From Pseudobdellovibrionaceae bacterium (lineage in GTDB: Bacteria; Bdellovibrionota; Bdellovibrionia; Bdellovibrionales; Bdellovibrionaceae), in the NCBI GenBank assembly GCA_044359815.1, contig JBIKLL010000060.1, positions 1 to 17,690 of the forward strand: DNA of 17,690 nucleotides, read 5' to 3'. Positions 2,177-15,813 of the stretch are shown one piece after another; positions within the stretch are counted from its first letter, which is position 1, and every line of letters starts with the position of its first letter. A program made the translations under genes and the position numbers. Under the pieces are notes generated by a model, which was given only the letters and a program-made list of their open reading frames with translations, was not told where the DNA came from and did no database searches.

Positions 2177-2252
2177 TGGTAGGGAGTACAGGATTCGAAC
2201 CTGCGACATCCACCTTGTAAGGGTGGCGCTCTACCAACTGAGCTAACTCCCT
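2177..2252 (-). tRNA. tRNA-Val (anticodon TAC), CCA encoded
   Basis: Reverse complement AGGGAGTTAGCTCAGTTGGTAGAGCGCCACCCTTACAAGGTGGATGTCGCAGGTTCGAATCCTGTACTCCCTACCA: 76 nt, canonical cloverleaf. Confidence 0.98.
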
Positions 2253-5534: not shown

Positions 5535-6039
5535 AAAAGCAGATTTGATGAGTTTTACCGCCGAACACTATGCCTTTGCTGTTTTTTAAACCGTACACCT
5601 GAGGGTTTTCCAGGCTAAAGGTTTGGATGTTATCAGCGACTTTTTGAAAGGGCCCCAACAAAATCTGACTCAGCGTCTGAGGCTGTTTAAAGCCACGCAA
5701 TCCCTTAAAGGAAGCTTCCAGGGCCACCCATGTGGCCTTGCAATTGTCCTCGGTGGCCTTTGGATAGATCCTGCGAACCACATTAAAGGTGATGTTATCA
5801 GTTTGCTCGATGTCCAATCCCACGTTGGTTTTGGTTTCAGGATTGATGGCAAAAAATCCACCCAAATTAGGGCAATGAGATTTTGAATATTTAAAATCAA
5901 CATAAGGCTTTAATGAATCCAGCAACAAATATTTTGAACCGGTAACGTCTGCACCCCAACTGGGATCAAATTTATAAACTATATCTTTGGTATCAAAATC
6001 TTTAAAAACTTCTGCAATGTTAAAATCTAAACTGCTCAC
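5521..6039 (-). CDS. 4'-phosphopantetheinyl transferase superfamily protein (short/divergent)
   Basis: SKSH, VGLDIE and WVALEASFK match the SxSH / GxDxE / WxxKEAxxK motifs; GTG start overlaps the nadA stop. Confidence 0.7.
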   Translation of the reverse strand: MSSLDFNIAEVFKDFDTKDIVYKFDPSWGADVTGSKYLLLDSLKPYVDFKYSKSHCPNLGGFFAINPETKTNVGLDIEQTDNITFNVVRRIYPKATEDNCKATWVALEASFKGLRGFKQPQTLSQILLGPFQKVADNIQTFSLENPQVYGLKNSKGIVFGGKTHQICFFICC

Positions 6040-6998
6040 ATAAACCTATCTGAAAACTGTACGGGTTTTCCGTTAACAATATCAACCATTCGCTGCAGAG
6101 GCAGCTTGGCCCGCTCTTGTACCTGAGCGTTTATCGAAATGGGGTTAAGCTTTTCAATCATAGTTTTTTTAATTTTTTCCAAAGTATTAAGCTTCATATA
6201 GGGACAATTGTTACAGGCGCAAGTTTCATCATCAACGGGGGCTTGTATCAACACAGCTTCTGGTCGAGATTTTTGCATCTGATGCAGGATCCCTGTTTCA
6301 GTAGCCACAATAAATTTTTTAGCTGGATTATTTTTAACCTCGTCTAATAATTTAGAAGTCGAACCAATTACTGCGGCATAGGCCAAAACTGGTTCATCAC
6401 ATTCAGGATGGGCGATCACTATTGCGTCTGGATTTTCACTAATAAGCTGATGCAATCGTTTTGCTGAAAATAAAACGTGGACCTGACAAGCGCCCTGCCA
6501 AATTTCCATTTTACGCCCTGTTATTTTTTGCAAAAACTTACCTAAGTTTTTATCTGGTCCAAACAAAATCGGCCGATCTGCAGGCAGCGAGCGAATGATT
6601 TTTTCGGCGTTGCTGGAGGTCACAATCACATCACTGATGGATTTTACTGCCACGCTGGAATTAACATAGGTCACTGCGATCCCATCAGGATAAAGCTTTC
6701 GCCAAGCCAAATATTTTTCATAGGGTGAATCATTAACCAATGAACAGCCAGCATTCAAATCAGGGACAAAGACATTTTTTTGCGGTGACAACAGCTTCAC
6801 GCTTTCGGCCATAAACACCACTCCGCACATCAGGATATTTTGCTGTTTTAAGTTTTTTGCCTGAATGGCTAATTGGTAGCTGTCGCCGACAAAATCAGCC
6901 AGGTCTTGAATTTCACCGTCTTCGTAATAGTGGGCCAAAATGGCAAAGTCGTGCTTTTGTTTTAGATTTTTGATTTCTGTAACTAGATCATAGCCCAT
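6036..6998 (-). CDS. nadA: Quinolinate synthase
   Basis: ILAHYY, FVGDS, CGVVFMAE, AGCSL, YVNS, GACQVH, AHPEC, ATETG and CPYMK motifs, with three Fe-S cysteines. Confidence 0.97.
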   Translation of the reverse strand: MGYDLVTEIKNLKQKHDFAILAHYYEDGEIQDLADFVGDSYQLAIQAKNLKQQNILMCGVVFMAESVKLLSPQKNVFVPDLNAGCSLVNDSPYEKYLAWRKLYPDGIAVTYVNSSVAVKSISDVIVTSSNAEKIIRSLPADRPILFGPDKNLGKFLQKITGRKMEIWQGACQVHVLFSAKRLHQLISENPDAIVIAHPECDEPVLAYAAVIGSTSKLLDEVKNNPAKKFIVATETGILHQMQKSRPEAVLIQAPVDDETCACNNCPYMKLNTLEKIKKTMIEKLNPISINAQVQERAKLPLQRMVDIVNGKPVQFSDRFM

Positions 6999-7025
6999 AG
7001 GACAAGGGTTTATACCACTTTATAA

Positions 7026-7064
7026 AGTGCTGCCACCTTTAAGTACATTGATGATGGATTTTGA
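7026..7064. repeat. 39-bp perfect direct repeat of the mglA 3' end (displaced copy)
   Basis: AGTGCTGCCACCTTTAAGTACATTGATGATGGATTTTGA is identical to 8327-8365; 43/45 when extended through the stop codon (7020-7064 vs 8321-8365). Confidence 0.97.
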
Positions 7065-7107
7065 TGAGCCTAGATCTTGGAAGCTGGGGTCCAGGCCAGC
7101 AATTTAG

Positions 7108-7175
7108 AAATGACTAAAAATACCAACGAGTCATTTTAGTATTGACTAAAATTACCTAAAGGTCAAAATAGTCAT
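7108..7175 (+). promoter_or_regulatory. Promoter/operator array of the ATPase gene (probably leaderless)
   Basis: Two 32-bp imperfect tandem units (7111-7142, 7143-7174) with inverted TGACT/AGTCA half-sites; TTGACT (7142-7147) and CAAAAT (7164-7169) end 6 nt before the ATG; no SD. Confidence 0.55.
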
Positions 7176-8318
7176 ATGGAAAGATATCTACATTCCCGTG
7201 TTTTAAAAGACCTCGGTTCTAAAATGGTCTTCATTAGCGGGCCCAGGCAGTGTGGCAAGACAACCTTTGCCCAAGAACTATTGAAGGCTTCAAAATCTGG
7301 CAGGTATCTCAATTGGGACTCAAAAGACGACAGAAAAACAATTTTGGATTCTAGCTGGGTTGATCAAGATAATCTAATCGTTCTGGATGAGATCCACAAA
7401 TATCAAAAGTGGAAGAATCTTATTAAGGGAATCTATGACACACAAAAAAAGATTCATCAGTTTTTGATCACCGGAAGTGCGCTTTTAGATGTTTACAGAA
7501 AAGGTCAGGATTCTTTGTTCGGCAGGTATCACCATTGGCGCCTGCATCCCTTTTGTTTGGCAGAAAATCCTTTGCAGGATGATCCCAGTCAGGTTTTGGA
7601 AAGACTTATTGAAAGGGGCGGCTTTCCTGAACCTTTTTTGGCAGAGTCTGCAGTCGATGCCAAAAGATGGGCAAAGTCGCATATGGATTTATTGATTAAA
7701 GAAGACCTTCGAGACTTAAGCTTTATCAAGGATCTGACAGCTATCGAGCAACTGTATGAGGGGCTTCGGGCTAGGGTAGGGTCCATAATTTCGAATGCCA
7801 ATATTGCTAGGGATATCGAGGTCGCCCCAAAGACCGTGAAACAATGGATCGCAATCTTGGAAAGCCTTTACATTATATTTTCCATAAAACCATATTCCGG
7901 AAAAATGATTCGTGCTTTGACAAAGCCTTCCAAAATTTATGTTTTCAATAATCCAGAAGTTGATGGAGATGAAGGTGCAAAGTTTGAAAATCTGGTAGCT
8001 ACGCATTTGCTGAAGAGAGTTCATTTTCTAGAAGATTCAATGGGTGAAAAATTTGAACTCAGTTATTTGCGCGACAAAGAAGGCCGAGAAGTTGATTTTG
8101 TGATTCTAAAATCAAAAAAACCAATTTGCCTGATAGAGGCAAAATACAACTCAGATCAGCCATCTGGTCATTTAAACTATTTTGGCGATAAGCTGAAAAT
8201 TGCAAAGCGAATACAGTTAGTACAAAAATTAAAAAAATCTTCCAAATTAAAAAACATTGAAATAATTCCGGCGGCACAATTTTTAAGTAAGCCACTGGAT
8301 CAAAACATCTTCGAATAA
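7176..8318 (+). CDS. AAA+ ATPase (AAA_14) with DUF4143 region: winged HTH and C-terminal PD-(D/E)XK-like motif
   Basis: Walker A GPRQCGKT, Walker B LIVLDE, ITGS, GGFPE, HTH-like NIARDIEVAPKTVKQWIAILE, FENLV, EVDFV..IEAK. Confidence 0.92.
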   Translation: MERYLHSRVLKDLGSKMVFISGPRQCGKTTFAQELLKASKSGRYLNWDSKDDRKTILDSSWVDQDNLIVLDEIHKYQKWKNLIKGIYDTQKKIHQFLITGSALLDVYRKGQDSLFGRYHHWRLHPFCLAENPLQDDPSQVLERLIERGGFPEPFLAESAVDAKRWAKSHMDLLIKEDLRDLSFIKDLTAIEQLYEGLRARVGSIISNANIARDIEVAPKTVKQWIAILESLYIIFSIKPYSGKMIRALTKPSKIYVFNNPEVDGDEGAKFENLVATHLLKRVHFLEDSMGEKFELSYLRDKEGREVDFVILKSKKPICLIEAKYNSDQPSGHLNYFGDKLKIAKRIQLVQKLKKSSKLKNIEIIPAAQFLSKPLDQNIFE

Positions 8319-8320
8319 GA

Positions 8321-8911
8321 TTAAAGAGTGCTGCCACCTTTAAGTACATTGATGATGGATTTTGAAACTGTTTTTAATGAATCCATTACTCCGCGGCCCT
8401 CTGATGCCGTGGCCTCAAAGTCAGGTGCGTTGTATTTGTTAAGCTGTGCTCTTAGCTCAGAAAGCTTTAAAGCATTTGGCAAATCCCGTTTGTTGTATTG
8501 AAGCACAACAGGGATTTCTTTGATGTCATAACCTTGAGTTTCCAGATTGCGTTCCAGGTTTCTGAGCGATAACAGATTTTCCTCCATCCGCTCGGCCTGT
8601 GAATCTGCAACAAACACCACACCATCAAGGCCTTTTAAAATTAATTTTCGGCTGGCATCGTAAACCACTTGGCCAGGCACGGTGTACAGATGAAACCGCG
8701 TCTTAAAGCCCCTGATGCTACCCAGATCAATCGGCAAAAAATCAAAAAACAAAGTGCGTTCAATGTCGGTGTTCAGTGTGATTAAATCGCTTTTTTCGCC
8801 ATTGGTTTGTTGAAACACCCAACGGATGTTTGTGGTTTTACCACTCAGTGAAGGACCGTAGTAAACGATCTTGCAGTGGATTTCTTTGGCGTTGTAGTTA
8901 ATAAATGACAT
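8321..8911 (-). CDS. mglA: Ras-like small GTPase MglA
   Basis: MSFINY..KIVYYGPSLSGKTTN, RTLFFDF, TVPGQV, NKRD; start overlaps the recR stop (TAATG). Confidence 0.97.
   Translation of the reverse strand: MSFINYNAKEIHCKIVYYGPSLSGKTTNIRWVFQQTNGEKSDLITLNTDIERTLFFDFLPIDLGSIRGFKTRFHLYTVPGQVVYDASRKLILKGLDGVVFVADSQAERMEENLLSLRNLERNLETQGYDIKEIPVVLQYNKRDLPNALKLSELRAQLNKYNAPDFEATASEGRGVMDSLKTVSKSIINVLKGGSTL
8327..8365. repeat. 39-bp direct repeat, copy within mglA
   Basis: Identical to 7026-7064. Confidence 0.97.
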
Positions 8912-15468: not shown

Positions 15469-15813
15469 GGGGGTGACCTGGTTTCGACGTGGGAACAGAA
15501 GCTTGAGGAGCATTCCGGGGCGCATGGGGACCTCGTTAAAAACGTGCATCTTGTAATTGACAACAATTACGCACTTGCAGCCTAACCGCTAGCACGAAAT
15601 TATTTGTTGTGGTCGCGGACTTATAATTTCGTCATTTAGTGACCTCGATCTTGCGTGCTTTCTGCAGGCGTAAGATTTAAAAAATTCTGTGGGAAGGGTA
15701 GTTTTGATTTCGTCTGTAGAAGCTAAGCTATCAATTTAAATTGCAGACTAAGAATGTAGCGCCTCAACGTGGATGTCTTACGGACGGGGGTTCGATTCCC
15801 CCCACCTCCACCA
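15469..15813 (+). ncRNA. ssrA: tmRNA, tag peptide (A)DNNYALAA
   Basis: 5' GGGGGTG..GGTTTCGAC pairs with 3' CACCTCC-ACCA with a G3:U pair; T-arm GGGGGTTCGATTCCCCC; tag frame GAC AAC AAT TAC GCA CTT GCA GCC TAA at 15559-15585. Confidence 0.97.

Follow-up and report, generated by a model that had tools for sequence, protein, structure and literature searches.

A single-gene ATPase-nuclease cassette between duplicated 3' ends of mglA in a Pseudobdellovibrionaceae bacterium: probable insertion with long target duplication

A contig of 17.7 kb from a Pseudobdellovibrionaceae bacterium (assembly GCA_044359815.1, contig JBIKLL010000060.1), analysed here as a whole and called the window, carries one gene for an AAA_14/DUF4143 ATPase-nuclease, a type known to PADLOC as PDC-S01, between mglA and nadA. 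The genome is a metagenome-assembled draft of 2.95 Mb in 125 contigs, 91% complete. A direct repeat brackets the gene, and both of its copies spell the 3' end of mglA. The features of the locus are collected in Table 1. We describe this arrangement and its recurrence around related genes, and we propose that the cassette probably arrived by recombinase-free insertion with long target duplication.

Table 1. Features of the mglA-nadA locus in the window
Feature	Position	Strand	Basis
nadA (quinolinate synthase A); directly after mglA in most relatives	6036..6998	-	Pfam NadA 1.7e-104
Left repeat copy; apparent relic of the last 14 codons and stop of mglA, ends TTA TAA; still at a native-like distance from nadA	7020..7064	-	Repeat search, translation
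5' non-coding part of the insert; predicted promoter and operator-like repeats	7065..7175	+	Repeat and promoter scans
ATPase-nuclease gene, 380 amino acids; AAA_14, lid, winged-helix-like region, DUF4143 (PD-(D/E)XK)	7176..8318	+	Pfam, PADLOC, alignment, fold model
Spacer of 2 nt from cassette stop to mglA stop; the genes converge	8319..8320		Sequence
Right repeat copy; working 3' end of mglA, ends CTT TAA	8321..8365	-	Repeat search, translation
mglA stop codon	8321-8323	-	Sequence
mglA (Ras-like GTPase MglA), intact, 196 amino acids	8321..8911	-	MglA structures E=8e-81; full-length matches in relatives

The direct repeat (7020-7064 and 8321-8365) is 45 nucleotides (nt) long. Its copies start 1301 nt apart and agree at 43 of 45 positions (96%), including a perfect 39-mer (7026-7064 and 8327-8365). 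This 39-mer occurs exactly twice in the 2.95-Mb genome with up to three mismatches tolerated, and the reversed pattern, taken as a control, does not occur at all. Read on the minus strand, either copy encodes SKSIINVLKGGSTL followed by a stop, and the sole difference between the copies lies in the last leucine codon, which is TTA in the left copy and CTT in the right. The open reading frame (ORF) of MglA has its true end in the right copy, and its product matches solved MglA structures over residues 1-193, that is, over its full length. The left copy is separate from mglA and lies 21 nt ahead of the nadA start. MglA stays full length because the 3' end of its gene is duplicated. The 1,256 bp between the copies (7065-8320) hold a single ORF, and their content of guanine and cytosine (GC) is 38.8%, compared with 41.2% in the genome. 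The first-pass annotation of this DNA had noticed the perfect 39-bp repeats, their shared peptide with its synonymous leucine codon, and an interval holding just a promoter and one antisense gene whose stop is 2 nt from that of mglA, and all of these hold.

A chimaeric contig joined at the 39-nt repeat would give the same picture; the fragmented draft assembly leaves room for such an error, and the first-pass annotation had itself raised the possibility. The assembly was checked against Logan contigs of four lake-water metagenome runs (X3, X6, X7 and X8), which were not flagged as a possible source. The left junction is bridged by a contig of X6 (6683-7481) and the right one by contigs of X7 (8209-8526) and X8 (8267-8420). 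These bridging contigs extend more than 31 nt to either side, with neither joints nor loose ends reported at the repeats. Contigs of X3 do stop there (at 7055, 8356 and 8327), as is expected for 31-mer assemblies at a 39-nt repeat. Misassembly is virtually excluded, because contigs from other runs cross both junctions. The three runs X6 to X8 had been considered as strains with an empty site, with word shares of about 0.45; this was rejected, as their cover proved patchy and of low depth.

MglA loci were compared in 29 related genomes, which belong to other genera and whose MglA proteins are 72-82% identical. In 18 of the 29, no more than about 110 nt separate the mglA stop from the nadA start; the gap measures 330-1073 nt in five, and the remaining six have no nadA within 1.5 kb. 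The gene order dnaX-ybaB-recR-mglA-nadA is conserved. None of the 29 relatives has a DUF4143 gene at the mglA-nadA site, and none has a duplicated mglA end. Judged by this comparison of loci, the ATPase gene is an addition in the window's lineage. An insertion hot spot between mglA and nadA was also considered, and no evidence for it was found: the three intervening genes scanned in distant relatives are ordinary ones (Dus, an AI-2E transporter and a phosphopantetheinyl transferase). In one genome (G034, contig C11, loci L011 and L053), where the mglA-nadA gap is 470 nt, a DUF4143 cassette is found some 1.2 kb past the end of nadA, near the window's site and not at it.

The repeat is not peculiar to the window. 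To find flanking repeats, 500 nt upstream of each gene were compared with 340 nt around and after its stop codon, with a score of at least 15 as threshold. The usable loci numbered 87: that of the window and 86 homologue loci from the same bacterial family. Twelve of them carry flanking repeats, 21-147 nt long. Non-cognate pairs of upstream and downstream segments (n=348) reached a maximum score of 16, with the 99th percentile at 13. Among ORFs of 300-460 amino acids in the window's own genome, five of 698 pass, one of which is the cassette gene itself; the frequency is thus higher among homologues than among other ORFs (11/86 vs 4/697, Fisher test, p=1.5e-8). A sample from other phyla yielded repeats at three of 71 usable loci, and two of these repeats measure 132 and 189 nt. 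One repeat counted among the twelve is doubtful: the 28-nt repeat of locus L084 takes in the promoter operator and is found 143 nt past the stop. Inserts at the repeat-bearing loci measure 1,230-1,559 bp and contain one gene each, and in six of the twelve the right repeat begins 2-9 nt past the stop codon. In the window and at four of ten other loci the repeat covers the 3' end of a neighbouring gene and leaves that gene intact. Three of these four (L037, L060 and L087) have the ends of both convergent neighbours covered, and the fourth (L118) that of the left neighbour. Neighbours left whole in this way include RNase E/G, a penicillin-binding protein and Mfd. The suggestion of the first-pass annotation that close homologues might also lie between duplicated ends of neighbouring genes is borne out by these loci.

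Several of the loci have further peculiarities. L048 holds two DUF4143 cassettes in tandem (479-1609 and 1841-2995); a 109-nt repeat brackets the first and continues, with an indel, into the region upstream of the second, and one cassette therefore seems to have landed just ahead of another. Some repeat-flanked cassettes adjoin toxin-antitoxin or abortive-infection genes: the one at L061:2770-4124 adjoins AbiEi/AbiEii, and the one at L107:662-1416 adjoins a nucleotidyltransferase and its substrate-binding partner, the left repeat copy lying inside the nucleotidyltransferase ORF. An element of about 60 nt, 83-92% conserved between species of one genus, is found at L117:1330-1388 (genome G107), L337 and L338:41-99, L334:2448-2510, L335:2463-2519 and L336:2473-2531. 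At L117 it stands between the left repeat and the cassette promoter, and elsewhere it is not beside DUF4143 genes. It occurs at two contig starts in one genome, has no Rfam match, and could be a small repeat or an RNA. The window's own genome also contains three other single ORFs between long direct repeats of 74, 40 and 32 nt (L215-L217; C99:51969-53087 on the plus strand, C58:8731-9717 on the minus strand and C106:25253-26500 on the plus strand). Two of them have no Pfam family and one carries an L,D-transpeptidase domain (YkuD_2). They may be further target-duplication insertions or repeated intergenic elements.

One paralogue, L087 of genome G160, offers an empty site at nucleotide level. 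Its insert of 1,252 bp lies between repeats of 147 nt. In five genomes of the same genus, which have no insert, the flanks of L087 align and meet on a single target copy (94-147 nt aligned, 146-147 nt in three of them). In the genome with the closest empty site the flanks are 84-91% identical to those of L087. The two repeat copies share 139 of 147 positions with each other; the left copy shares 134 of 146 with this empty target and the right copy 136 of 146. The copies thus resemble one another more than either resembles this empty target, which points to a duplication made in place. At L117 only the left flank aligned within its genus, at 64-70% identity, and the right flank did not align.

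Restriction-modification genes provide a precedent. Insertions of all types of these genes have been found with direct duplications of more than 30 bp of target (Furuta, Abe & Kobayashi 2010, PMC2853133, here and below as far as the text of the paper was available to us). These duplications vary in length, are unique to each site and come without other mobility genes; examples include 46-bp repeats that overlap gene 3' ends, and the paper cites Nobusato et al. 2000 (its reference 37). Its authors suggest double-strand breakage as the common factor. Under the definition of PMC2853133 the repeat is longer than 30 bp and unique in the genome, as is the 45-nt repeat of the window, and the insert is shorter than 20 kb without another mobility gene, compared with 1,256 bp and one gene here. 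The definition also asks for a related genome without the insert, in which both flanks align around one copy of the repeat; five same-genus genomes provide this for paralogue L087, and for the window it is suggested by the gene order in 18 of 29 relatives from other genera. The cassettes resemble the published cases as short nuclease-bearing units between duplications of variable length and site-unique sequence, without transposase or integrase, some of the repeats overlapping the 3' ends of neighbours. They differ in cargo, since the definition includes both restriction and modification whereas the cassette is one ATPase-nuclease gene with no methyltransferase. They also differ in having their own palindromic, apparently leaderless promoter, and in the closeness of the right repeat to the stop codon at half of the repeat-bearing loci. 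Within the available text of PMC2853133, the window's case matches the features of repeat and insert described above except for the cargo.

We therefore consider insertion with long target duplication, without a recombinase, the probable origin of the arrangement. The one-gene cassette would have inserted 45 bp before the end of mglA, and this 45-bp target, made up of the last 14 codons and the stop, would have been duplicated on either side of it. The mglA frame would thus be complete, and the displaced copy would have stayed by nadA. The most likely route, we infer, starts from a double-strand break with a wide stagger, its nicks lying tens of bases from each other; the cassette would have been caught in this break, which would then have been filled in. 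The gene family's own nuclease may provoke such breaks.

The first-pass annotation had read the locus as a site-specific element that carries a replacement gene end. In such a scheme a minimal element, or the remnant of a larger island, would bring an attachment site (attP) containing the 3' end of mglA, and a tyrosine or serine recombinase would integrate the element in trans. Integrase-less derivatives of integrative elements are mobilised in trans. The repeat restores the 3' end of a gene, as attachment (att) sites do and as is seen in integrative elements that use the 3' ends of genes or tRNAs; the two mismatches at one edge of the repeat could mark the border of an identity block; and integrases, too, produce repeats of 30-100 nt and more (PMC2853133, available text). 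What separates the cassettes from such elements is their one-gene size and the lack of any integrase found, conserved att core or tRNA target. A recombinase family turned up neither among the window's 18 largest ORFs nor among 23 flanking ORFs within 1.5 kb at ten repeat-bearing homologue loci, though one may be encoded elsewhere. The repeats of 11 loci, 21-147 nt long, have no common core (pairwise local scores: mean 6.5, maximum 10; shuffled: mean 6.2, maximum 11). Related cassettes from different genomes (73-88% nucleotide identity) are alike only from about position -65 to the stop codon; their flanks are unrelated, and no attP-like arm is conserved. The copies of L087, which match one another better than they match the closest empty target, also speak against this scheme. 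The first-pass annotation had further seen a loose T-loop likeness at the start of the repeat, with a possible link to tRNA gene arrays, and had proposed that a predation or motility gene was targeted. Neither claim is supported: there is no tRNA at the site, no Rfam match with E<=1 in 6800-8600, no tRNA gene array seen in the window, and none of 89 other cassettes adjoins mglA. What stands of the earlier view is the insertion of a lone gene with a full-length MglA, and its att-type framing is not supported; we hold site-specific integration to be quite unlikely. Ordinary transposition fits no better. The same ORFs of the window and flanks contain no transposase domain, terminal inverted repeats are lacking at the insert ends of 11 loci (mean score 6.3 vs 6.1 shuffled), where no junction motif or microhomology was seen by eye either, and the variable repeat length (21-147 nt) differs from the fixed short duplication expected of insertion sequences. 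Phages were considered as carriers and are no evident vehicle, the viral-contig scan having returned only 27 distant relatives (24-28% identity). Two RNA genes of the window were recorded elsewhere on the contig: a tmRNA (15469-15813, plus strand; tag peptide DNNYALAA) and a tRNA-Val(tac) (2177-2252, minus strand).

Homology could have driven the arrival instead. A circular or linear copy of the cassette, linked to an mglA end beforehand in a related donor, might have entered by transformation, and a single Campbell-type crossover or homology-facilitated illegitimate recombination would then have duplicated the homologous segment. The working copy ends in CTT TAA and the relic in TTA TAA, both leucine and stop, as if two alleles had been brought together; two synonymous steps in the working copy (TTA-CTA-CTT) are an equally possible origin of this difference. 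Most published cases of long target duplication come from naturally competent species (PMC2853133, available text). Arrival by homology leaves the first insertion at a site unexplained, however, and none of the other 89 cassettes is a neighbour of mglA. Both copies of L087 stem from the recipient lineage. In addition, 39 nt is near the lower length limit of RecA-type recombination. On balance this route is unlikely. It is also conceivable that the ATPase gene had long resided at the site and that the repeat arose from a later, unrelated local duplication, and the insert's GC content is near that of the genome. The gene is nevertheless absent at the site in all 29 relatives, the repeat brackets exactly one gene with its promoter, and the same bracket is far commoner around paralogues than around other genes; a long residence is therefore very improbable.

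Several points weigh against insertion with long target duplication. The empty state of the window's site rests on gene order and not on nucleotide alignment, the relatives being of other genera with no close one found; there is no nucleotide-level empty site for the window because nothing closer than 79% identity, the best match of a metagenome scan with MglA, is at hand. The empty mglA-nadA site anticipated by the first-pass annotation is thus seen by gene order in relatives, and the contigs of X3, X6, X7 and X8 hold no empty site, circle or amplification, although contigs cannot show rare variants. No flanking repeat is found at 75 of the 87 loci of the bacterial family or at 68 of the 71 from other phyla; for this majority, either most insertions are old or the genes came by other routes. 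The copies in the window differ at only two positions, in one codon at one edge, and a crossover boundary with an mglA end borne by the element would give the same. How long duplications form is unexplained for restriction-modification genes too, and their life cycle is unproven according to the authors (PMC2853133, available text). As to a role of the gene in defence, four candidates protected E. coli B against T4, T5 or T7, and the sole PDC-S01 system tested there was not one of them (bioRxiv 10.1101/2024.09.26.614923, in the part available).

The product of the cassette gene has an N-terminal AAA_14 domain (1.1e-25, 90.5 bits; gathering cut-off 27) and a C-terminal DUF4143 domain (5.5e-25, 88.4 bits; gathering cut-off 28.1), the latter listed under the PD-(D/E)XK superfamily (PMC3424549, part of the text). 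Seven PDC-S01 models of PADLOC match the protein, among them PDLC04790 with E=1.9e-54, and no NCBIfam model does. Residues that are invariant in 49 family sequences are all present: the Walker A motif (G22, P23, Q25, G27, K28, T29, T30), the Walker B motif (D71, E72) and the nuclease motif E-x-D...E-x-K (E305 and D307, E321 and K323), which is intact. An AlphaFold model based on the 49-member alignment reached a pLDDT of 92.5. In Foldseek it is closest to Orc1/Cdc6, Apaf-1/CED-4, the archaeal ATPase SSO1545 (TMq 0.42), RuvB and RFC, with sequence identities of 10-18%. These neighbours point to an AAA+ core that has a lid and a winged-helix-like region, behind which the nuclease domain follows. 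The predicted core, lid and winged-helix-like region are shared with AAA+ proteins of the Orc1/Cdc6 and STAND types, which lack the C-terminal PD-(D/E)XK domain. A sequence search of the PDB found no structure of the family.

In its own genome the cassette gene is single-copy. Among worldwide clusters one is 98% identical (six member sequences), the next 65% (one source-named Bdellovibrio sp.), and those that follow, at about 53%, include Leptospiraceae, Spirochaetia and Turneriella. Matches occur in 103 of the 182 genomes of the same bacterial family. Many of these genomes contain at least ten (up to 47 first-look candidates), which are only 40-50% identical to the window's protein, and in one well-sampled genus 39 of 44 genomes have none. 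Such a patchy, multi-copy and phylum-crossing distribution is typical of mobile or defence genes. PDC-S01 is described as an AAA ATPase fused to a PD-(D/E)XK domain, the same two-domain build as here, which became a candidate through its genomic neighbourhood; it ranks as the fourth most common defence candidate across prokaryotes, with validation pending (PMC12988326, in the portion available). The cassette gene is thus a candidate anti-phage gene of a common type. The accessible part of the literature treats PDC-S01 as a defence candidate and is silent on movement of the gene, and under the names DUF4143, COG1373 and PDC-S01 no discussion of mobility was found in it, supplements aside.

The non-coding part of the insert, 111 nt long, has no significant match in the window's own genome or in the retrieved homologue loci. 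It contains two tandem operator-like repeats of 32 nt (7100-7131 and 7132-7163). A sigma-70-like promoter, composed of TTGACT (7142-7147), a 16-nt spacer and CAAAAT (7164-7169), falls in the second of them and ends 6 nt ahead of the ATG at 7176, for which reason a leaderless mRNA is suggested. The pattern recurs in the family. In the 78 nt ahead of the start codon, inverted repeats score 22.5 on average, compared with 8.0 in shuffled sequences and 8.6 in a downstream control, and direct repeats score 11.9 vs 5.8. Of 90 loci, 58 have a sigma-70-like promoter, and at 55 of the 58 its -10 element stops 5-8 nt ahead of the start codon. The predicted winged-helix-like domain may bind the operator repeats and so regulate its own gene. 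At homologue loci L034-L122 the promoter-operator stretch (78 nt ahead of the start) is often 88-97% identical between cassettes. Each compared with that of the window, the proteins of those cassettes are only 42-52% identical to it. The conserved promoter palindrome hints at a shared regulator or at a role beyond transcription.

Two weak signals concern transcription across the insert. An outward promoter-like site (TTGACC-17-AATACT, 7166-7138, minus strand) faces nadA, and a terminator-like hairpin (8143-8125, minus strand) lies inside the cassette, about 180 nt beyond the mglA stop. The predicted hairpin and the outward site could stand in for lost co-transcription of mglA and nadA; in the scan both are at chance level.

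A single nuclease gene between host genes, patchily distributed and possibly selfish, recalls free-standing homing endonuclease genes. Homing works by repair from an occupied allele, which copies the gene without duplicating the target, whereas long duplications are the hallmark of the cassette family. A further and tentative thought, to which we lend only limited credence, is that AAA_14/DUF4143 (PDC-S01) genes are autonomous one-gene mobile elements, whose own ATP-driven nuclease would make staggered breaks that capture the gene together with its leaderless promoter and leave target duplications of 20-190 bp. If this were true, PDC-S01 would owe its rank among the commonest "defence systems" in part to selfish spread and not to immunity that has been proven.

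Provided that insertion with long target duplication is the correct explanation, a scar tied earlier to restriction-modification genes recurs in a second and very abundant class of nucleases, and an unexplained, recombinase-free route of gene mobility would extend beyond restriction-modification genes. The many natural events described here, some of them with empty sites, may serve as material for working out its mechanism. On the side of the host, the locus suggests that a conserved motility gene can take up a foreign gene in its end and come to no harm.

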